A DNA stretch of 45,301 nucleotides, taken from the IMG/VR virus record IMGVR_UViG_3300012667_001007, positions 1 to 45,301 of that record, one strand, 5' to 3'. Positions 16 through 45,292 of this stretch are shown here, piece after piece; the stretch's first letter is position 1, and every line of letters begins with the position of its first letter. The position numbers and the translations under genes are program-made. The notes beneath the pieces are model-generated. The model did no database searches and had not been told where the DNA came from. It saw nothing but the letters and a program-made list of their open reading frames with translations. The DNA comes from a virus. Lineage: Duplodnaviria > Caudoviricetes.

Positions 16-23
16 TAACTTTG
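16..23 (+). promoter_or_regulatory. Bacteroidetes-type -7 promoter element (TAACTTTG) upstream of the ParB/cupin/Ibr/terminase operon
   Basis: Matches TAnnTTTG, 26 nt upstream of the ATG at 50. Confidence 0.6.
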
Positions 24-49: not shown

Positions 50-706
50 ATGAATAGCTTAGAAGTCAAATACAGGAGGACGGCTGAACTAGTGCCTTAT
101 GCAGGGAACGCTCGAACGCATCCCGAGCATCAAATCGAACAGCTGTGTGTCAACATCCAGAGGTTCGGTTTCTACAACCCAGTACTCATTGACGAGCACG
201 GAACTATCATTGCTGGACACGGTCGAGTGATGGCAGCGAACCGTCTCGGAATGGTCGAGCTTCCGACAATCACACTCGTTGGTTTGAAGGAAAACGAACG
301 CAGAGCGTTGGTCCTTGCGGACAACAAAATTTCGCTCAATGCGTCGTGGGACTTTGAGAAGGTTCGTGAGGAACTGTCCGCCCTGGCGTTGGATGATTTC
401 TCGCTCGAGCTCACAGGTTTCAACGACAGCGAAATTTCGGCGCTTCTGGAATCGAGCGGAGATCTATTTCCGATAGACGTCAAGTCTCACTACGTCGCGA
501 CGGTACCAGATTCAGAGCAACAGCCAAAACAGGCTCATGCTCCTGGTGTGTCGCACGATGACTATTCCCGTTTTGACTTGGTTATGTTGCACACCAACAA
601 ATCCGAGTTGATTGAAATCCTGAGCAAGCGTCGTGAAGAAATGATGTACGACAAGCTCGAGGACGCCATGATGGACTTGGTTAAATGCTGGAAGGAGAAC
701 TCATGA
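50..706 (+). CDS. ParB/Srx-like N-terminal domain protein
   Basis: LVPYAGNARTH...FGFYNPVLID...IIAGHGRVMAA...LADNK...WD is the ParB-N pattern seen next to phage terminases and DNA methylases; no MTase motifs follow. Confidence 0.85.
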   Translation: MNSLEVKYRRTAELVPYAGNARTHPEHQIEQLCVNIQRFGFYNPVLIDEHGTIIAGHGRVMAANRLGMVELPTITLVGLKENERRALVLADNKISLNASWDFEKVREELSALALDDFSLELTGFNDSEISALLESSGDLFPIDVKSHYVATVPDSEQQPKQAHAPGVSHDDYSRFDLVMLHTNKSELIEILSKRREEMMYDKLEDAMMDLVKCWKENS

Positions 707-1413
707 ATCCGTCATTCATCGGACTGCCATTCACGGACGGAGAAGTCTACACGTCTCCGAACATCAACGTTATTGGTTTGATGGGTTCGGATATGTGGAA
801 CTTCACAGACGGTACGTACTTCGTATTCGTCGCGAAGGGATTGGCTTGGTATAACGGTGACACTCCGTTGAAGGCTGGAATGTACGGCTGCTTCACTACG
901 GGCCGCATCCGAGCTGAGTCATACACTCGAGTTATGATTGTTCAAGTTCTGGACTACGACGGCATGCGTATGTTTGGTGGACCTGTGGAACAGAAGGGGC
1001 GTTTGAAGTACATCGATGGATGCACGGATAGCCTACTCATCCCACCTGTGAAAATGGGTGACCCTTGTTTGAATCACCTTCATTTCCCTGCTGGTATCGA
1101 CCAGACAATGCACACTCACCCGTCTATTCGCATCGGTTACGTTTATCGAGGTTTGGGGCAGTGCATCACTCCGTGGGGAATAGTTCCACTCATTGAAGGA
1201 ATGATGTTCATCATCAATCCTGAGAACGGTGAGACACACGAAGGTTCAGCCGTTGGCAGTCATTGTTTCCGTACAGATTTGCGGACGATGGACATTATCG
1301 CGTTCCATCCAGACAGCGACTTTGGACCAACCGATGAAGTACATCCAATGATCAATCGAACGATTGTCGATGGAGTAAGTGCCAGCAGCATCAAAGAAAT
1401 TAGAACGAAGTAA
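703..1413 (+). CDS. Cupin-fold protein
   Basis: Cupin motif 1 PAGIDQTMHTHPSIRIGYVYRG and motif 2 GMMFII...SHCFRT; start placed at 703 by ATGA overlap with the upstream stop. Confidence 0.75.
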   Translation: MNPSFIGLPFTDGEVYTSPNINVIGLMGSDMWNFTDGTYFVFVAKGLAWYNGDTPLKAGMYGCFTTGRIRAESYTRVMIVQVLDYDGMRMFGGPVEQKGRLKYIDGCTDSLLIPPVKMGDPCLNHLHFPAGIDQTMHTHPSIRIGYVYRGLGQCITPWGIVPLIEGMMFIINPENGETHEGSAVGSHCFRTDLRTMDIIAFHPDSDFGPTDEVHPMINRTIVDGVSASSIKEIRTK

Positions 1414-1414
1414 C

Positions 1415-2743
1415 ATGCCAAAAATCAGGTCAAAGAAATACACGGAAACGAACGTTTATGATGCGGCACTCGAGCGGATTCGCTACTGCTATAAGCGTTT
1501 TGATAACGTTGTTGTCTCTTTCTCTGGCGGTAAAGATTCAACGGCTGTTCTAAATCTTACGATAGAGGTGGCACGTGAACTTAGAAGGCTTCCGGTACAT
1601 ACGATATTTGTTGACGAGGAGGCAATCCACCCTCCGACTGTGGAATATGTTTCGAGGGTACGAGAGCTCCCCGAGGTACGTCTTGATTGGTATTGTTTAC
1701 CTGTCAAGCATCGAAACGCCTGTTCCAACGAGCAACCGTTTTGGTACTGTTGGCATCCCGAGGAACGATCTCTGTGGGTGCGTGAGATGCCGTCGTTTGC
1801 ATTGACGGAGCATCCACAGTTCAAGTTTGGAGACAGCTTCCAAGATTGGATGCCGCGCATCTTTCCAAGTAACAAGGGAAGTGTGTGTGTGCTCACGGGT
1901 ATTCGTACCCAGGAGAGCCTTCGACGTTTCCGAGTTATTGCTGCCAAGAAGAACGATGCGTTCGTTACTTCAAAGGCTGAGGGGGGCAACAGTTACCGAG
2001 GCTTTCCGATTTACGACTGGAGCAGTGAAGACGTTTGGAAGTTGGTCGAGGTGAAAGGTTTCGACTACAACCGAACGTATGACATCTTCAACAAAACGAA
2101 GCTGTACAACAAGCTCCTGACTCAGCGTGTGTGTCCTCCGTATGGCGAAGAGCCGTTGAGGGGATTGTGGGTTTACGCTGAGTGTTTCCCTGAGATGTGG
2201 GAAAAGATGCTTGGTCGTGTGAAGGGTGTGGCTACTGCGTGGCGTTATGCCAACACGGAGCTGTACTCGAATTGGAGTAAACCTGAGAACATGAGTTGGC
2301 AGAACTATTGCAAGATGATTCTGGAGACTTACACGGAACCAGAGTATCGAAACATGGTTGCGGTGAACATCAATACAATGATCTCGGCTCACTACAACAA
2401 AACGAACGATGAAATCAAAGATGAAGAACCTCATCCATTGAGTGGATGCAGTTGGAAATTTCTTGCGAAGCTAGCAGTCAAAGGTGATTTCAAGGGACGA
2501 CAAAAGCAACAGATGATTAGTGAAGGTGAAAAAACGTTAAAGAAACTAGGTATTACGTTGGAGGAAGCCTTTGACTTGTACGGAAAACGTGGTGGAAAGG
2601 CAGCCAATCGATTCCGTTCGTTGGGTGCACCGAAGCGAACTAAAGGCGAACGACTACAACCCGAACAAGGTAGCACCTCCAGAGATGAAGCTGCTACGGA
2701 TTTCGATTCTGGAGGACGGTTGGACACAGCCAATAGTGGCTAA
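1415..2743 (+). CDS. ibrA: IbrA-like PAPS-reductase-family / DUF3440 PP-loop protein
   Basis: SFSGGKDS PP-loop, FVDEE, LTGIRTQESLRR, PIYDW...DVW, QRVCPPYG; ATG at 1415 directly after the cupin stop. The last ~50 aa overlap ibrB in another frame. Confidence 0.85.
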   Translation: MPKIRSKKYTETNVYDAALERIRYCYKRFDNVVVSFSGGKDSTAVLNLTIEVARELRRLPVHTIFVDEEAIHPPTVEYVSRVRELPEVRLDWYCLPVKHRNACSNEQPFWYCWHPEERSLWVREMPSFALTEHPQFKFGDSFQDWMPRIFPSNKGSVCVLTGIRTQESLRRFRVIAAKKNDAFVTSKAEGGNSYRGFPIYDWSSEDVWKLVEVKGFDYNRTYDIFNKTKLYNKLLTQRVCPPYGEEPLRGLWVYAECFPEMWEKMLGRVKGVATAWRYANTELYSNWSKPENMSWQNYCKMILETYTEPEYRNMVAVNINTMISAHYNKTNDEIKDEEPHPLSGCSWKFLAKLAVKGDFKGRQKQQMISEGEKTLKKLGITLEEAFDLYGKRGGKAANRFRSLGAPKRTKGERLQPEQGSTSRDEAATDFDSGGRLDTANSG

Positions 2744-3092
2744 CTCCGACAATGTGATTGTTGACGGCTTCCACCGTTGGACTGTCAGCGCCGACAAGGA
2801 CGTCTACAAGCTAACGGACGGCAAAGTCCCCGTAGTGTTTATCACTCCAGCTGACGAGCCGAGTAGGAAGATGTCAACGATTCGGCACAATCGAGCGAGG
2901 GGAACACATGGCGTTCTTCCGATGGCCGACATCATTGAGAGCATGTTGGCAGAAATGAAAAGTATGGATGAAATCTGCGAGCGATTGCAGATGGAGAGTG
3001 AGGAAGTTATTAGATTAGCAAACAGGAAAGGAATTCCAAAGACGGATATTGTTCGAGACAGTGAATGGTCGAAGTCTTGGGAACCAGAATAA
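2589..3092 (+). CDS. ibrB: IbrB-like ParB/Srx domain protein
   Basis: QPIDSVRWV...ANDYNPNKVAPPEMKLL..SILEDGWTQPIV...IVDGFHR...STIRHNRARGTH; no N-terminal ATG, so start is GTG 2589/2592 or TTG 2571 (uncertain). Confidence 0.85.
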   Translation: MVERQPIDSVRWVHRSELKANDYNPNKVAPPEMKLLRISILEDGWTQPIVANSDNVIVDGFHRWTVSADKDVYKLTDGKVPVVFITPADEPSRKMSTIRHNRARGTHGVLPMADIIESMLAEMKSMDEICERLQMESEEVIRLANRKGIPKTDIVRDSEWSKSWEPE

Positions 3093-3102
3093 AATATGAA
3101 GT

Positions 3103-3702
3103 ATGGCAGAAAAAGTATCGATAAGGGAGTTTGCTCGACGTGTTGGCGTTTCTGACGTTGCCGTTGGGAAAGCTATTGCTGCAGGTAAGATTGTTCAGGC
3201 AATAGACTACACCAACCCCAAGCGTCCGAAGATTGATCCAGATTTAGCGTTGAAGGAGTGGGGCAAGAACTACGACCCTTCGTATCAGCGTACGGAAAAA
3301 GTCAACGAGCTAATGGGTGAAGGAGTAGCACCTCCAAAGCCTATGAAGGCGAAGCCAAAGCCTAAGCTACAGGTTGAAGATTCAGAACCTGAAACACCTC
3401 AGCGACCTGGTGGAAAATCTCTTGCTGAGATCAAACGCCAAGCTGCTGAGGTGAAGTTGCATATTTCTGCAATTGAGTTGAAGGAGAAGAAGGGGCAGCT
3501 GGTTGACAAGGACAAAGTGTACAAGGCGTTGTTTGCTGCAGGGCAGGAGGTAAGGACGGCATTTCAGGCTGTTCCCGACAGAGTCATTGACGACATTCTT
3601 GCGGCAAAGACTAGGAACGAAGCACATTCTGTTTTGTTCAACGCCATTGCTGACACGCTCGAAACGCTGAGTGAAATTGCAAATCGTGATTTAAACGTTT
3701 AA
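3103..3702 (+). CDS. Terminase small subunit (N-terminal HTH)
   Basis: VSIREFARRVGVSDVAVGKAI HTH; C-terminal ELKEKKGQLVDKDKV Nu1-like segment; directly upstream of the large subunit. Confidence 0.8.
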   Translation: MAEKVSIREFARRVGVSDVAVGKAIAAGKIVQAIDYTNPKRPKIDPDLALKEWGKNYDPSYQRTEKVNELMGEGVAPPKPMKAKPKPKLQVEDSEPETPQRPGGKSLAEIKRQAAEVKLHISAIELKEKKGQLVDKDKVYKALFAAGQEVRTAFQAVPDRVIDDILAAKTRNEAHSVLFNAIADTLETLSEIANRDLNV

Positions 3703-3704
3703 TT

Positions 3705-5558
3705 ATGGAACTATTACTTTCAAAAGGATTCTTCGATGGCTTGAAACCCGAGCCACGTTTGACTGTTTCTGAGTGGTCGGACAAGTTCCGATTCCTTGCG
3801 CCAACCTCATCTGCTGAGCCTGGTCCATACAGGACGGAGCGCACGCCGTACCTCAAAGAGATTCAGGACAAGCTCTCAGCGACCGACCCTGTTCAGGAGA
3901 TTGTGTTCATCAAAGGGGCACAGGTAGGGGCAACGGAAGCAGGGTTCAATTGGCTTGGATACATCATTGACGTTGCGCCAGCACCCACGCTGTTGGTGCA
4001 ACCTACGGACACGATGTCCAAGCGAAACTCAAAGATGCGTCTCGAGCCAATGATTGAGGCAACGCCACGGCTTCGGGAAAAAATCAAACCAGCACGCTCG
4101 AGGGATTCGGGCAACACGACTATGCAGAAGGATTTCCCTGGTGGGACGGTTGTGCTGACTGGTGCCAATTCGGCTGTTGGTCTGCGCTCCATGCCGGTTA
4201 GAAATTTGATGCTGGATGAGGTGGACGGCTATCCTGTTGACCTTGACGGTGAGGGTAGTCCTGTTGACTTGGCGCGAGCTCGAACACGGACGTTCGCTCG
4301 TCGTAAGATTTTCATCGTGTCCACTCCAACCATTGAGGGACAGTCGGTTATTGAGTCGGAGTTCATTGACTCGGACCAACGTCGTTTCTTCGTTCCGTGT
4401 CCACACTGTGAGCACCAACAACACTTGAAGTTCGACAACTTGAAGTGGGAGCCTGGAGATCACGCATCAGTCATGTACTACTGTGAGGAATGTGGGGCAG
4501 GAATAGAAGAACGTTTCAAAACATGGATGATGAAGCGTGGCGAATGGAGAGCTACGAATGAAGAGTACACAAATCCGTTGAAGGTTGGATATCATATCAA
4601 TTCTTTGTACTCTCCGTTCGGTTGGTATTCATGGTCGGAAGCTGCGCGAGATTGGGAGACGGCAGACGGAAACGTCACAAAGCAGAAGTCATTCATCAAT
4701 ACGGTTCTTGGCGAGACGTACAAGGATAAAGGCGAAGCTCCACCTTGGGAAAATCTATTCAACCGTCGCGAGACTTACAGGATAAATACTCCTCCATTGG
4801 ACGTTCAGTTCTTGACGGTTGGAGTCGATGTTCAGAAGGATCGTCTGGAGTTAGAGATTGTCGGTTGGTGTCGCAACAAAATAAGCTACTCGATTGATTT
4901 CCGTGTGTTGCCTGGCGACACGTCCGCTCGTGCTGTGTGGGACGACTTGTCAAAGGTCGTTGGCGAGACGTGGATTAGGGAAGACGGCGCAGAACTTGGA
5001 ATGCGCATGATGGCAATCGATACTGGATACAACACTCAGCACGTTTATGACTTCTGCAAAAGGTACGACGTGACAAAAGTTATTCCTGTGAAAGGAAAGG
5101 ACACTCAACAAACGATTGTTGCACCACCACGCCAGGTGGATGTAACTACTGCAGGAAAGAAAATCGGTAGGGTGAAGGTGTGGCACGTTGGTGTTTCCGT
5201 TGTAAAGAGTGAGTTATACGGATTCCTACGACAGGAAAAGGATGAGAACGGTAACGCTCCGTATGGTTATTGTCACTTTCCGCAGTACGACCAACACTAT
5301 TTCCGAGGCTTGACGGCTGAGGAATTGCAGTTGAAGATAAATAACCGAGGATACCGTGTGTATCAGTGGGTTAAGAAGTATGACCGAAACGAACCTATTG
5401 ACTGTCGTGTTTATGCTCGTGTTGCTGCATCCGTCGTTGGTATGGACCGATACGAAAACAATGAGCCATGGTGGAAGAGTGTATCACCACAGGAACGTAC
5501 TGAGCGAGTAGAAGTAAAACAACCGAGAAGAAAAGACAGTTCATTTTGGAGTGATTGA
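3705..5558 (+). CDS. Terminase large subunit, lambda GpA family
   Basis: LTVSEW, KGAQVGATE Walker A variant, LDEVD Walker B, STPT, CPHC/CEEC zinc motif, GVDVQKDR nuclease, NEPIDCRVYA. Confidence 0.97.
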   Translation: MELLLSKGFFDGLKPEPRLTVSEWSDKFRFLAPTSSAEPGPYRTERTPYLKEIQDKLSATDPVQEIVFIKGAQVGATEAGFNWLGYIIDVAPAPTLLVQPTDTMSKRNSKMRLEPMIEATPRLREKIKPARSRDSGNTTMQKDFPGGTVVLTGANSAVGLRSMPVRNLMLDEVDGYPVDLDGEGSPVDLARARTRTFARRKIFIVSTPTIEGQSVIESEFIDSDQRRFFVPCPHCEHQQHLKFDNLKWEPGDHASVMYYCEECGAGIEERFKTWMMKRGEWRATNEEYTNPLKVGYHINSLYSPFGWYSWSEAARDWETADGNVTKQKSFINTVLGETYKDKGEAPPWENLFNRRETYRINTPPLDVQFLTVGVDVQKDRLELEIVGWCRNKISYSIDFRVLPGDTSARAVWDDLSKVVGETWIREDGAELGMRMMAIDTGYNTQHVYDFCKRYDVTKVIPVKGKDTQQTIVAPPRQVDVTTAGKKIGRVKVWHVGVSVVKSELYGFLRQEKDENGNAPYGYCHFPQYDQHYFRGLTAEELQLKINNRGYRVYQWVKKYDRNEPIDCRVYARVAASVVGMDRYENNEPWWKSVSPQERTERVEVKQPRRKDSSFWSD

Positions 5559-9795: not shown

Positions 9796-10143
9796 ATGTC
9801 TACTCCTTTTGACGGACTCATGCAGACTGCCTTTGACGTTACAACTAACGTCATGGGTTACGATGCTACATGGACTCCATCATTAGAAGGATCAACAGAG
9901 CAAGTTGGAAGGGTTCACTATCGTGAGCCGAACCATGAAGAAATGATGAACGGCGTGCAATATTCGCCGTTCATTTTTGTTATGGAGTATAAGATTGGGG
10001 TCTTTGACGGACTTCAAGAATCTGTTCGTAGTGGAACTATTGAACAAGTACTTGTAAATAACTCGCTCCACTACGTTAGGAGTGTGAGAAAAATCTCAGA
10101 CGGTCAAACGTTTGAAGCACAACTAGAAAAAATATCGGCATGA
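9796..10143 (+). CDS. Head-tail joining (head closure) protein
   Basis: Size, position and beta-rich pattern; sequence evidence alone is weak. Confidence 0.6.
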   Translation: MSTPFDGLMQTAFDVTTNVMGYDATWTPSLEGSTEQVGRVHYREPNHEEMMNGVQYSPFIFVMEYKIGVFDGLQESVRSGTIEQVLVNNSLHYVRSVRKISDGQTFEAQLEKISA

Positions 10144-11900
10144 ATGTATTCTATTCTCAGATTGAGCAGGAGATTGTTAACCATCTACAACCGTTAACAA
10201 CTGCGAACACGATTGAGGTTCTATCGCTCCCTGAGTTTCAGGCTGATTTTGAACGACCTTTCCTACATGGAAGGGTGACGGTGGCTTACAAGTCATCGGA
10301 GTTTGGACCGATAAAGGGTTCGGACTATGTCATCCAAGATGAGATGATACAAGTTGAGGTTATCGTACAGGCACGATTGCTGAAAGGTAACACAGGATTG
10401 CACTCTATTACGGAGGCAATCAAACGTCGTTTGTTGGGTTTTCCTCCAACAGACTGCACAAAACTATTCCTAGTAAAGAATGCATTTGGAGAGCTGAACA
10501 ATGAGACGGCGCTATGGACTTACTCCATGGTTTTCCAATGCAGATATACGCTAGTCGAAGATGCAGAATACGGGACTGAACCAGGTCTCTCACAGATAAA
10601 TTTTGAGTACAACGAGGAATTGCCTTCAATTCCTGCGGTGCCGTTCCCTGGCACATTCCCGAGTCCTCCTATCGTTGCATACGAGGGAGACATTGCATAT
10701 TGGGATGGTGAGGTATGGAGAAGGCTATCACCTGGTGAGGCTGGATTCGTACTATCTACCAATGGCCCAGGTGAGATTCCTGAATGGATATCTCCTCAGA
10801 GCGGACCACAAGGTCCACAGGGAGAGCCTGGTCCACAAGGCGCAGACGGTGCTGACGGTGCAGACGGTGCTGACGGTGCAGACGGTGCTGACGGTGCTGA
10901 CGGTGCTGATGGTGCTGATGGTGCTAACGGACTATCTGCATACGAGGTTGCTGTTGCTAATGGCTTTGAAGGCACTGAGCTCGATTGGCTTGCTTCGCTT
11001 GAAGGACCAGAAGGTCCACAGGGAATTCAAGGTGCGACGGGTTCAACGGGTGCAACAGGTGCGCAAGGTGTTGGGTATGACGGGATAACATCAAGTAGTT
11101 CCATAACTATTGGTTCTGGTCTTAAAACTTGGACTGTTGCAGGAGTTGGCGCTTTCACTGCTGGTATGCGTATTAGGGCAATCCATAGTGACACCCCATC
11201 TTATTGGATGGAAGGTACAGCAAATGTCGCATCCGCAACAACGATAATTATCACTGTTGATAAATTTAATGGTTCAGGATCTCACAATGCATGGAAGTTT
11301 GTTGTCGCTGGTGAAATAGGAGCAACAGGAGCACAAGGTGCTACAGGACCAGCAGGTCCTACGGCTGTTTCTGCTAACGCTGGAAATCAAGCAACGCTTG
11401 GAACTGATTCACTTATCTATGTAGGAGGGTTGGTTAAATGCCTGCCTATTGCTCAAGGAGTAAACGTAACAGGAACGACAGCCAAAACGATTAGTGCATC
11501 GGTTCTAGTTCCGGCAAATAAAATAGTTTCGAACTCGGTAATTAAGATTGAAGCCAGAGCAATAAGAATTAGTGGCACGGCTGGTATTATCAATTGCGAC
11601 GTATACAAGAATACTTCCAATAGTTTAGTCGGCGCTACGCTTATTGCGACCTACAACACGATGACTGTGTCTAACTATATTAGTGGCATGATGCGAAATA
11701 TATTTATCGACGTAGCGGCAAATCAATTGACAATTCTTAATGGTGGTGCAACTGTTAGCACGGACTACGTGAACACAGGAGTAAACACTGTTATTGCGTT
11801 CGATGAAACGGTTAATAACTACCTCATATTCGCACTCCAGAACACAAATTCGGGAGACACGTCTAAGGTTCAATTTGTACATACATCCATATACGAATGA
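10140..11900 (+). CDS. Gp37-like tail terminator fused to a collagen-like fibre
   Basis: First ~140 aa resemble Mu Gp37 family (GRVTVAYKSSEF...IKRRLLGF...WTYSMVF); then G-X-Y repeats, GLSAYEVAVANGFEGTELDWLASL, and a beta-rich C-terminus. Confidence 0.7.
   Translation: MNVFYSQIEQEIVNHLQPLTTANTIEVLSLPEFQADFERPFLHGRVTVAYKSSEFGPIKGSDYVIQDEMIQVEVIVQARLLKGNTGLHSITEAIKRRLLGFPPTDCTKLFLVKNAFGELNNETALWTYSMVFQCRYTLVEDAEYGTEPGLSQINFEYNEELPSIPAVPFPGTFPSPPIVAYEGDIAYWDGEVWRRLSPGEAGFVLSTNGPGEIPEWISPQSGPQGPQGEPGPQGADGADGADGADGADGADGADGADGADGANGLSAYEVAVANGFEGTELDWLASLEGPEGPQGIQGATGSTGATGAQGVGYDGITSSSSITIGSGLKTWTVAGVGAFTAGMRIRAIHSDTPSYWMEGTANVASATTIIITVDKFNGSGSHNAWKFVVAGEIGATGAQGATGPAGPTAVSANAGNQATLGTDSLIYVGGLVKCLPIAQGVNVTGTTAKTISASVLVPANKIVSNSVIKIEARAIRISGTAGIINCDVYKNTSNSLVGATLIATYNTMTVSNYISGMMRNIFIDVAANQLTILNGGATVSTDYVNTGVNTVIAFDETVNNYLIFALQNTNSGDTSKVQFVHTSIYE
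10839..10928 (+). repeat. 9-bp tandem repeat x10 encoding (GAD)9-GAN
   Basis: Units of GGY GCW RAY read directly from the sequence. Confidence 0.95.
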
Positions 11901-18700: not shown

Positions 18701-18909
18701 CATACACCACTTACAAAACAGTTGAGGGAGATCGTTGGGACACCATCGCATTTAAAGCGTATGGAGATGCGACTCAGTACAGTAAGATTATTGAGGCAAA
18801 TCCATTCGTTCCCAAGGGCGTTGTGCTACCTTCTGGATTGACGTTGTACGTTCCTGTTGCAGACAGACCGAGTGTTAACACCTCACTATTGCCACCATGG
18901 AAACGGTAA
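18697..18909 (+). CDS. Tail protein X (LysM-like)
   Basis: GDRWDTIAFKAYG...IIEANP...LPPWKR. Confidence 0.92.
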   Translation: MTYTTYKTVEGDRWDTIAFKAYGDATQYSKIIEANPFVPKGVVLPSGLTLYVPVADRPSVNTSLLPPWKR

Positions 18910-20282
18910 TACAGCCACGCATTAAGATAGTGTACCAGGGCAAGGACATATCGAAGGATATCTCCGAGTTCTTGCTGTCGGTTGATTATTCCGACAACAC
19001 CTCTGACGAGTCGGATGAGGTTAGTTTTACGGTTGAAGATTCCGAGGGACTTTGGCGCACAGACTGGATGCCAAACAAGGGTGACAAGCTCACCATGTCG
19101 ATTGGTTACGACCACGAAATGATGGACTGTGGAACGTTCACCGTTGATGAAATCGAATTTTCGGGTGCTCCAGACGTCATTTCCATTCGTGGCTTGGCGG
19201 CTAGCGTAGCAAGTCCTGTACGAACGAAGACGTCAAAGGCTTACGAGAAACAGACGTTGCGCCAGATAGCGGATGAGATTGCCAAGAAATACGGATACCA
19301 GGTCATAGACAACAACTCCGATAAGTCGGCTTTGGATGAGATTCAAATCGAGCGCATCACGCAGTCTCGTGAATCGGACTTGGCGTTCCTCAAACGAGTT
19401 GCTGAGGACTACGGAATCATGTTTTCTTTGAGGGACACAAACCTAGTTTTCACTTCTGTTTTTGACATTGAAAAGAGTGATTCAGTCGATAAGATTGATA
19501 GAAAGCAATTGCTTTCCTACAACGTGAAGGACACGGCTGTATCAACCTATAAGGAAGCTACCGTCAAACATACCTCTCCAAAACAGAACAAAGTCATTGA
19601 GTCGAATGTACCGACTAAGTTCATGTACGGAGGTGAGGGCGGTGGTCCAGACAGCAAGTCACAGGACACGCTAGAGATTCGAGTGAAGGCAGACAACCCG
19701 AAGCAAGCCGAGAAGAAGGCTAGGGCAAAGCTGCACAAGTCGAATAGCAAGGAGAAAGAGGGTAGTTTCACGATCATTGGAAACACGAAGCTCGTTGCTG
19801 GAAATAACTTTGAGCTAACAGGAATGGGCGGTTTGTCTGGAAAGTGGAACATCACGAAGTCGGCGCATAAGATTGACCGAAGCGGTTACACCACAGACTT
19901 TGAAGCTAAGATGATAAGTGCTGGAACAGGGCAAGGAAAAGTCGCATCGATTGGAGACGTATTGTTTGACATCGACAAAGCTGTTATAAGACCAGAGGGA
20001 ATTGTTGCGATTGATAAGGTAATTACCTACATGAAAGACAATCCTACTACGGTTATGGAGGTTGCTGGACATACGGATTCGAACGGAACGGATGAGTACA
20101 ACATTGACTTGTCTACTCGTAGGTCAAATGCATGTCGTGACTACATGATCTCCAAGGGTATTTTCGCTACTCGATTGATTGCTAAGGGGTATGGCGAAGG
20201 TCAACCTGTTTCATCAAACGCAACGGCAGACGGACGTCAGAAAAACAGACGTACAGAATTCGTAGTTGTCAAGAATAATTAA
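18897..20282 (+). CDS. Baseplate hub (P2 gpD-like) with C-terminal OmpA-like domain
   Basis: YSDN...SDEVSFTVED, QSRESDLAFLKRVAEDYG; last ~110 aa VLFDIDKA...GHTDSNG..EYNIDLSTRRS...GYGE..P...NRRTEF. Confidence 0.9.
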   Translation: METVIQPRIKIVYQGKDISKDISEFLLSVDYSDNTSDESDEVSFTVEDSEGLWRTDWMPNKGDKLTMSIGYDHEMMDCGTFTVDEIEFSGAPDVISIRGLAASVASPVRTKTSKAYEKQTLRQIADEIAKKYGYQVIDNNSDKSALDEIQIERITQSRESDLAFLKRVAEDYGIMFSLRDTNLVFTSVFDIEKSDSVDKIDRKQLLSYNVKDTAVSTYKEATVKHTSPKQNKVIESNVPTKFMYGGEGGGPDSKSQDTLEIRVKADNPKQAEKKARAKLHKSNSKEKEGSFTIIGNTKLVAGNNFELTGMGGLSGKWNITKSAHKIDRSGYTTDFEAKMISAGTGQGKVASIGDVLFDIDKAVIRPEGIVAIDKVITYMKDNPTTVMEVAGHTDSNGTDEYNIDLSTRRSNACRDYMISKGIFATRLIAKGYGEGQPVSSNATADGRQKNRRTEFVVVKNN

Positions 20283-41276: not shown

Positions 41277-42650
41277 ATGTTCAATTCAGAGTTCTTTCCA
41301 ACACCCGAGCCTGTTATCCAATTGATGCTCGCCACAACAGACCTTGCAGGAAAATACGTTCTTGAGCCTTCCGCAGGAAAAGGAGATATTGTCGACTTCT
41401 GCGCAGGCTCTGGAGCATTTGTCACGTCGTGTGAGAAAAATCCTGACCTCGCGAGAATCGTTGCCTCGAAATCGACATTCCTCAAACATGATTTTCTGGA
41501 CGTCACGGCCGATGAGGTCAGCCATATCGACTACATCGTGATGAACCCTCCATTTTCAAACGCTGACAGGCATATCCTACACGCCTGGAGCATCGCTCCT
41601 GACGGCTGCGAAGTGATAGCGCTGTGCAATTGGCAGACAATCGAAAACCGGTACACATCCACACGCTCACAGCTTGGACGCATCATTTCCGACTATGGAC
41701 AGTCTACCAACATAGGTGACGTGTTCTCGGACGCTGAGCGCACCACAGGAATCAATATCGGGTTGGTGCACCTATTCAAACCTGCCGACATGAACACGTT
41801 TGACGGATATTTTGACGAGACACCAGACGAGGCAGAGCAGCAATACAACGGAATCATTCCGTACAACGCCATCCGTGACGCTGTGCAGCGATACGTTGGA
41901 GCGTGCAAACTTTTTGACCAGGTGGCAGAAAATGCCGTTCAGATGAACAATCTTGTGGGAGAGTTTGGAGCGAATTCCATCACTTTTGCACTCAAACAGG
42001 ATGAGAAAGACGCATCCATTGAATCGTTCAAAAAGGAGCTCCAAAAAAGAGCCTGGTCATGGGTGTTCAACAAAATGAACATGCAGAAGTATCTCACTGA
42101 GTCGCTGAAAAAGGAAATCAACGTATTCGTGGAGCGACAATCCAAAGTGCCTTTCACGATGAAGAACATCTACAAAATGATGGACATCGTTGTGGGTACA
42201 CATGGCAACAGGATGGAGCGAGCACTCGTTGAGATATTCGATAAACTTACCATGCACCACCACGAAAACCGATACAACGTTGAAGGCTGGAAAACCAACA
42301 GCCACTACCTGGTGAATCAAAAATTCATTCTCGAGTGGGTTGCTGAATCCAGTTGGGGGAGCATTCCCCGAATTCGATACACAGGCAACGCCGCGAAAGT
42401 GGATGATCTCGTGAAAGCACTCTGCTATTTGACGGGCCAGAAATACAACGCCAACGACACGCTGTATTCGTTTTTCTATGCCGAAACAAGGGAGTGGGGA
42501 ACTTGGTACGAGTGGCAGTATTTCAAAGTCAAAGTGTTCAAGAAGGGCACCATGCACGCTCAGTTCCTTGACAAGAAAATTTGGGAATTATTCAATAGGG
42601 CAGTAGCGAAGGCAAAAGGCTATCCGCTGCCAGAATCCGTAAAACTATAA
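41277..42650 (+). CDS. Amino-DNA methyltransferase with DUF4942-like C-terminal region
   Basis: FFPTP, VLEPSAGKG (SAM binding), MNPPF (motif IV); WKTN and KVFKKGTMH in the C-terminal part. Confidence 0.88.
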   Translation: MFNSEFFPTPEPVIQLMLATTDLAGKYVLEPSAGKGDIVDFCAGSGAFVTSCEKNPDLARIVASKSTFLKHDFLDVTADEVSHIDYIVMNPPFSNADRHILHAWSIAPDGCEVIALCNWQTIENRYTSTRSQLGRIISDYGQSTNIGDVFSDAERTTGINIGLVHLFKPADMNTFDGYFDETPDEAEQQYNGIIPYNAIRDAVQRYVGACKLFDQVAENAVQMNNLVGEFGANSITFALKQDEKDASIESFKKELQKRAWSWVFNKMNMQKYLTESLKKEINVFVERQSKVPFTMKNIYKMMDIVVGTHGNRMERALVEIFDKLTMHHHENRYNVEGWKTNSHYLVNQKFILEWVAESSWGSIPRIRYTGNAAKVDDLVKALCYLTGQKYNANDTLYSFFYAETREWGTWYEWQYFKVKVFKKGTMHAQFLDKKIWELFNRAVAKAKGYPLPESVKL

Positions 42651-45285: not shown

Positions 45286-45292
45286 GGGTCCT
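45286..45292 (+). other. cosQ-like element GGGTCCT
   Basis: Identical to the lambda cosQ heptamer, 9 nt from the window end, in a genome with a GpA-type terminase. Confidence 0.55.

Follow-up and report, generated by a model that had tools for sequence, protein, structure and literature searches.

The ParB1, bicupin, IbrA and IbrB genes

The 45,301-nucleotide stretch of viral DNA analysed here (IMG/VR record IMGVR_UViG_3300012667_001007; hereafter the window) opens with four packed genes that encode a ParB-domain protein (ParB1), a bicupin, the PP-loop enzyme IbrA and its ParB-fold partner IbrB, and that run straight into the terminase genes. This cassette is the minimal four-gene form of a real and widespread IbrA/IbrB variant. 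We propose, with a probability of roughly 0.55, that it would be a late-expressed, ATP-dependent module marking DNA with a non-sulfur donor. The features of the locus are the following:

16..23, + strand: promoter-like TAnnTTTG element TAACTTTG, read from the sequence; probable start of the late operon
50..706, + strand: ParB1 (phrog_620, 1e-50; phrog_498, 2e-46 over residues 3-138)
703..1413, + strand: bicupin (alignment of 55 sequences; model pLDDT 95; best fold match DUF861, 1sfn)
1415..2590, + strand: conserved body of IbrA, a PP-loop adenylyltransferase-like domain plus DUF3440 (PF01507, PF11922)
2591..2743, + strand: read-through extension of the IbrA frame into ibrB (of 54 junctions compared, the one with the longest overlap; 6 of 7 differences leave IbrB unchanged)
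2571..3092, + strand: IbrB, a ParB/Srx-fold domain (YNPN, DGFHR, NRARG) with a helix-turn-helix-like end (phrog_2159, 5e-63; 40-sequence alignment)
3103-3702, + strand: small terminase terS (phrog_57), a downstream neighbour outside the enzyme set
3705-5558, + strand: large terminase terL of the lambda gpA type (PF05876, PF20454), a downstream neighbour

An earlier sequence-only reading had described four coupled reading frames at 50..3092 running into terS, and all four lie there, ibrB ending at 3092 with a gap of 10 nucleotides before terS. ParB1 and the cupin overlap by the ATGA at 703-706, and IbrA starts at 1415, one nucleotide after the cupin end. The close packing is thus as described, while a read-through overlap of 154 nucleotides (about 50 codons) between ibrA and ibrB had been missed. 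The IbrA of the window has no stop near residue 393, where its relatives end, and its frame stays open to 2743; among 53 relatives the largest overlap is 55 nucleotides and the rest measure 10 or fewer. The ibrB gene lacks an ATG and starts at TTG 2571 or at GTG 2589/2592. The junction was compared in four runs from four studies, and contigs from all four span it without an indel, ruling out an assembly error; the extended frame is present in four other samples too. No base differences were listed for 2480-2629 in the four runs, which differ by about 2-3% elsewhere, and of the 7 differences within the overlap, 6 leave the IbrB protein unchanged and alter residues of the tail. Because of this pattern and the lack of indels, the IbrA tail is regarded as real but not under selection. 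A programmed IbrA-IbrB frameshift fusion was not adopted, because the relatives carry ibrA and ibrB as separate genes in varying frames, even though 2480-2629 has no listed difference among the runs.

Two ParB/Srx-type domains do flank the set, as had been noticed: ParB1 matches phrog_620 and phrog_498, and IbrB matches phrog_2159. The N-terminal ParB domain of ParB1 is of the kind that occurs in fusions with phage DNA methylases; it is followed by a linker and a small C-terminal domain, for which no family was found in Pfam or Atlas. Concerning IbrB, residues 4-139 match ParB/Noc chains through the helix-turn-helix region. Sulfiredoxins carry their catalytic cysteine in a GCHR motif, and this cysteine is absent from both proteins, IbrB reading DG[FY]HR in 40 of 40 sequences and ParB1 AGHGR. 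A ParABS partition role is not indicated either, as no ParA was found in the family scan of the 46 window proteins and the parB_part score is 17 bits against a cut-off of 58.

IbrA matches PAPS_reduct (PF01507, 1e-15) and DUF3440 (PF11922, 7e-12), both above cut-off, as well as phrog_2302. The SGGKDS loop and the cysteine motifs (HRNACS, QRVCPP) previously pointed out are all present in the window. Across 41 relatives, however, only the PP-loop proved invariant (FSxGKDST, 41/41) and none of the cysteines did: C94, C103, C240 and C257 are all kept in 29 of 41 sequences, and one sequence has none of the four. FAD synthase is the nearest fold to the IbrA model (pLDDT 89; Z 15.8, root mean square deviation 3.1, 170 residues aligned), ahead of CysD (Z 15.1) and APS reductase (Z 14.6), with TilS, GMP and NAD synthetases at 11.4 or below, in a comparison that barely covers the DUF3440 part. 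DndC, SspD and TdpC were not among the fold matches listed. The reactions of FAD synthase and CysD place AMP on an oxygen of phosphate or sulfate. With its invariant PP-loop and its predicted fold, IbrA would probably be an adenylation-type enzyme, in agreement with the earlier proposal.

The motif ECG[LI]H is the catalytic C-terminal motif of CysH. It was found in 0 of 41 IbrA sequences, CxxC occurs in 3 of 41 with no conserved CC...CxxC, and the score against TIGR00434 (cysH) is 17 bits for a cut-off of 165. These features bear on the view that IbrA is an auxiliary metabolic cysH product, a PAPS/APS (phosphoadenosine or adenosine phosphosulfate) reductase boosting sulfate assimilation. Such a role would agree with the Pfam PAPS_reduct and PHROG labels and with the counting of a DUF3440 clade among viral cysH genes (10.1101/2021.01.05.425418). 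Since no cysteine is invariant and the tail motif is missing, CysH was ruled out as the identity of IbrA, and with obligate ParB partners in addition the metabolic role is hardly credible.

The cupin gave no match in Pfam, PHROGs, NCBIfam or PADLOC. It has 2163 homologues of similar length, none of them in 50,697 cultured phage records. The HxH plus distal histidine without a glutamate, seen in the first reading, holds: the protein has HTHP, H187 and an arginine where the glutamate would be. Residues H137, H139, H187, R143, Y103, C107, H202 and H214 are invariant in 55 of 55 aligned sequences, and H137, H139 and H187 of the C-terminal barrel are the predicted metal site. The predicted structure is closest to DUF861 (1sfn; Z 19.5, root mean square deviation 2.8, 196 residues aligned), then to ureidoglycine aminohydrolase (UGlyAH, Z 18.4) and salicylate dioxygenase (Z 16.0), with BacB also among the listed matches; identity to DUF861 and UGlyAH is 10-11%. 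An Atlas search agrees in direction at a lower score, and the best E-value of the cupin profile against solved structures was 0.02. The bicupin fold is therefore shared with DUF861/UGlyAH and with gentisate and salicylate dioxygenases, from all of which the cassette cupin differs (10-13% identity) by its three histidines, invariant arginine and missing glutamate after HxH. A three-histidine site without glutamate is also that of the thiol dioxygenases (cysteine and cysteamine dioxygenase) and is present in 55 of 55 sequences; neither enzyme was among the fold matches listed, and the earlier suggestion of a thiol dioxygenase is not upheld by a bicupin model nearest to DUF861/UGlyAH.

Linkage, terminases and the methylase slot

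Among viral loci found by the cupin, 37 of 38 carry both ibrA and ibrB, and among those found by IbrA, 15 of 17 carry the cupin, both misses being contig ends. This linkage is far beyond chance and bears out the conserved association on which the sequence-only reading had staked its case. Clustering at 90% DNA identity sorts the 55 viral loci into 39 groups. The order of cupin and ibrAB varies, either preceding the other, and a ParB gene leads the set in every contig that extends to this point. Within the set, 10 of the 55 loci contain a second PP-loop gene, a short one, and some have additional amidotransferase (GATase), SET or SDR genes; the four-gene form of the window has neither an amidotransferase nor a second PP-loop gene. 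In one locus (L053:4424-4885) a SET-domain gene and a short PP-loop gene are placed between ibrA and ibrB.

The position ahead of terS is the usual place of a methylase, as the first reading had it. In 10 distinct contigs found by terL or terS, a ParB-N6/N4 methylase occupies the slot in 4 (3 by scan, and L142 counted as nearly a copy of L141); one has a ParB plus a ParB with sub-cut-off methyltransferase matches, one a cut ParB, and 2 the cassette. Close relatives thus carry ParB-N6/N4 methylase fusions (phrog_498) with the same ParB type in the same slot, and the cassette differs from them in having three separate genes in place of the methylase domain. In the closest relative (L018, terL 82% identical), the first ibrA codons run directly into the last part of ibrB, the two being joined at a short sequence that both share. 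Only a short hybrid ibrA/ibrB remnant is left between the cupin and terS (L018:1499-1581), while ParB1, cupin, terS and terL are kept. This natural deletion, in a single contig, suggests that ibrAB is dispensable.

A large terminase lies within 2.5 kb downstream in 49 of the 55 loci; four contigs are too short and two have none. With one representative per group scanned, the 49 loci comprise 34 of the Terminase_3/6 type, 6 of TerL_ATPase, 4 of gpA and 5 without a Pfam match. Homologues of IbrA are also found in 224 cultured phage records, where they neighbour antirepressor, recombination, SNF2 helicase or primase genes or lie in the terminase-portal interval or at the genome end. The window clade IbrA is 27-35% identical to the cultured-phage matches listed. 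In Microbacterium phage Hendrix (L152:2020-6143), an IbrA homologue closes a series of genes labelled GT25-like, "glucosyltransferase", "methyltransferase" and GNAT (N-acyltransferase).

The earlier proposal that DNA is modified during packaging, which we extend to enzymes physically bound to the terminase and acting during translocation, could draw on this proximity and on the short ibrB-terS gap. It is very unlikely given the three unrelated Pfam terminase types plus one unassigned group, the loss of ibrAB in L018 and the placing of IbrAB away from terminases in cultured phages. For the same reasons, the terminase link is probably one of shared late timing and not of physical contact.

Donor chemistry and target of the putative mark

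The best 120 of 4791 longer IbrB matches include 17 fusions with an Ntn amidotransferase, 3 with a short PP-loop domain, 4 with the N-terminal half of IbrA, 1 with a sodium:solute symporter and 78 with a C-terminal domain without a known family. Additionally, mycobacteriophages Gaia and Nebkiss encode an ectoine-synthase-family cupin fused to IbrB directly after IbrA (in Gaia, gene 104, L153:4820-5719), and Pseudoalteromonas phage XCL1123 has the same combination as two pieces. Cupins have joined IbrAB at least twice, because the Gaia-type cupin belongs to a family different from that of the cassette bicupin. The amidotransferase, symporter and ectoine-synthase fusions would favour nitrogen chemistry, and a mark on phage DNA would probably be nitrogen-containing.

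Known systems close to the cassette include DndC, SspD, BrxP and TdpC, which share the PP-loop branch and a ParB-fold companion (DndB, SspE) with the cassette and differ from it by their invariant cysteine dyad; IbrA scores far under cut-off and its fusions are of the nitrogen type. Phage phosphorothioation, in which IbrA would act like DndC, SspD or TdpC and place sulfur in the backbone with the help of a host cysteine desulfurase, would explain the weak PADLOC matches (DndC 4.5e-14, BrxP, SspD), the four cysteines of most IbrA sequences and the invariant cysteine of the cupin. According to one report, tdpC alone suffices for phosphorothioation (PMC12914056), so sulfur transfer by IbrA keeps some room, and IscS could come from the host. 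A phage PAPS-reductase-like gene is also reported to aid escape from Dnd (PMC13551039, citing Piel 2022). DndC, however, carries a cysteine dyad and a 4Fe-4S centre (PMC10853773), and IbrA reaches 36.5 bits against a cut-off of 290 with TIGR03183 (DndC). No desulfurase, nickase or DndD/SspC/BrxC-type ATPase was seen among the 46 window proteins. As no IbrA cysteine is invariant and the fusions bring nitrogen-handling domains, the sulfur reading is weak and phosphorothioation quite unlikely; sulfur, which had been the favoured donor, has lost that place.

For the cupin in cellular genomes we examined the best 80 of 326 matches, for which the neighbour counts have no chance control and include kin that are not independent. 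Only 8 of the 80 loci have ibrAB. The other 72 include 16 with a WSGGIDS PP-loop gene directly upstream, 8 with an asparagine-synthase-like gene and 9 with an AMP-binding enzyme, so that a PP-loop or AMP-binding enzyme is near the cupin in 33 of 72; a further kind of neighbourhood, an ATP-grasp/NeuB/sulfotransferase cluster on the opposite strand, is seen in 20 of 72, largely from one genus. These counts suggest a small-molecule enzyme that partners adenylating ligases.

Specific arrangements recur among these loci. The same bicupin forms part of a conserved three-gene set in L115:4550-5629, L086:4793-5890 and 14 more loci, mostly of Bacteroidota, together with a membrane-anchored protein of 160 amino acids and a WSGGIDS PP-loop protein of 360 amino acids without a Pfam match. 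In L116, L119, L126, L131, L133 and L135 (Pyrinomonadaceae and one planctomycete) it adjoins asparagine-synthase-like genes and a membrane protein with a cysteine-rich N-terminus. In Maricaulis loci, including L066, L078 and L102, it faces a cluster with NeuB, cytidylyltransferase, ATP-grasp and sulfotransferase genes.

Such neighbourhoods lead to an alternative in which the cassette would counter host defence by making or consuming a small molecule or a nucleotide, or by altering a protein, and DNA is not the substrate. The asparagine-synthase-like, AMP-binding/acyl carrier protein and ATP-grasp neighbours of the cellular cupins speak for it, and so do the symporter and ectoine-synthase fusions of IbrB and an IbrA fold match to Cap9-CdnD (9nto, Z 8.3), a PP-loop enzyme that modifies its partner protein. 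Against this, the cassette swaps with DNA methylases in one slot while the same ParB type is kept, its late position fits progeny DNA better than an early counter-defence, and IbrAB comes after SNF2 helicases in two cultured phages. We consider this alternative unlikely.

The namesakes of the system are E. coli IbrA and IbrB (K-12 paralogues YbdN and YbdM; phrog_2302 and phrog_2159), where, as here, a protein with PAPS_reduct and DUF3440 is followed by a ParB-fold partner. The window clade differs in its additional upstream ParB1 and bicupin and in its place before the terminases. From the E. coli work it could be argued that IbrAB is a transcription co-activator or anti-silencer of late or prophage genes, with IbrB (ParB plus helix-turn-helix) acting like VirB. 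The annotation "co-activator of prophage gene expression" (PMC4490671) agrees with this, as do the ParB/Noc match of IbrB through its helix-turn-helix region and the position at the head of the late operon. Such a role would leave the invariant PP-loop, the metal bicupin and the amidotransferase fusions unexplained; the closest relative lacks ibrAB and yet has terS and terL, and altered expression might follow indirectly from a DNA mark. We give it a slim chance.

Reports on IbrA/IbrB, DUF3440 and ybdNM, as listed in a search of largely non-subscription literature that lacked the first E. coli IbrAB study, gave no defined reaction and no cupin cassette. The same holds for the accessible parts of PMC8813620, PMC11437467, PMC13551039 and PMC9068703, and Ybd, Ibr and PAPS go unmentioned in the portion seen of the main text of a ParB-fold survey (10.1101/2025.10.10.680097).

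A functional parallel may be offered by the phage thymine dioxygenases. ParB partners activate these enzymes, and their contigs often carry terminases (PMC13229309). As in the cassette, a ParB without an obvious DNA-binding domain stands beside a modifying enzyme, often near terminases. The differences are a three-histidine bicupin instead of a 2-oxoglutarate/Fe enzyme of the TET/JBP kind and a PP-loop enzyme as the core.

The gene linkage, the slot, the folds, the invariant residues and the fusions are observations; modification of DNA by the cassette is an inference, which we would word as follows. Nucleotide binding and the loading or retention of the enzyme on DNA would be the task of the two ParB-fold proteins, in analogy to the ParB partners of the dioxygenases (PMC13229309). 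IbrA would spend ATP on adenylating an oxyanion, carried either by DNA or by a small donor, and a nitrogen nucleophile (ammonia, a small amine or an amide) would displace the AMP. The bicupin may make or tailor the small donor; in other versions of the cassette this job would go to an amidotransferase, an additional PP-loop enzyme, a cupin of the ectoine-synthase family or an import protein. The cassette is a conserved, apparently dispensable set at the head of the late operon that likely marks new phage DNA before packaging, and the benefit is likely escape from host restriction.

Several observations weigh against this proposal. The nitrogen donor is borrowed from other versions of the cassette, because the four-gene form lacks an amidotransferase and a second PP-loop gene, and the retention of all four cysteines in 29 of 41 IbrA sequences leaves room for sulfur. 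The cellular cupins have small-molecule and polysaccharide enzymes as neighbours and not DNA enzymes, with 19 of the 72 loci outside every ligase group counted, and 2 of the 10 terminase relatives lack both a methylase and a ParB gene in the slot. For E. coli, IbrAB is described as activating the expression of prophage genes (PMC4541368, PMC4490671), and a connection of ybdNM with citrate regulation is reported (PMC9068703). In the literature found, no experiment has an IbrAB homologue acting on DNA.

A bolder version, which we regard as a long shot, has IbrA adenylate a backbone phosphate of DNA and a nitrogen nucleophile replace the AMP, giving a natural phosphoramidate backbone; the nucleophile would be ammonia, released by a fused amidotransferase, or else an amine that the cupin makes or the symporter brings in. 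Adenylation of the backbone phosphate is reported for the Tdp pathway. If true, phosphoramidate would be the first such backbone mark besides phosphorothioate; it would occur widely among phages and, as ybdNM, stay silent in E. coli.

Phage setting and significance

The family scan gives the window the look of a near-complete temperate myovirus, with a lambda-type terminase and portal, a P2-like contractile tail and an integrase. Near-identical DNA is present in aquatic metagenomes, and no RNA dataset was among the matches listed. The motif TAnnTTTG, which we take to be a Bacteroidota -7-type promoter element, stands ahead of several genes and so suggests a Bacteroidota host. The promoter-like motif of the earlier reading fits it and recurs in 4 of the 9 relatives compared (L018, L019, L058, L140), at 19-41 nucleotides ahead of the reference position of ParB, while its enrichment across the window is marginal only (38 observed, 27 expected); a sigma-70 scan found no promoter at the cassette. 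At the other end, GGGTCCT at 45286-45292, presumably a lambda cosQ-like motif, lies 9 nucleotides from the window end and suggests a cos site in the short gap between window end and window start.

Apart from the cassette, a DUF4942 protein with a methyltransferase-like N-terminal domain (41277-42650) may methylate the phage DNA separately. The baseplate hub (GPD) protein at 18897-20282 has an OmpA peptidoglycan-binding domain fused to its C-terminus, and the Gp37-family tail completion protein at 10140-11900 reaches 586 amino acids through a collagen-repeat extension.

The present analysis adds a natural ibrAB deletion, the cellular context of the cupin and the Gaia fusion, which enables a test in culture. 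Mycobacteriophage Gaia with its cupin-IbrB fusion and phages of Streptococcus thermophilus and Bacillus subtilis are the cultured test cases. Genes for IbrA and IbrB are common in phages and in E. coli and are often counted as sulfur-metabolism (cysH) genes; if their products mark DNA, they would represent a widespread, undescribed route of modification and likely a device for escaping restriction.

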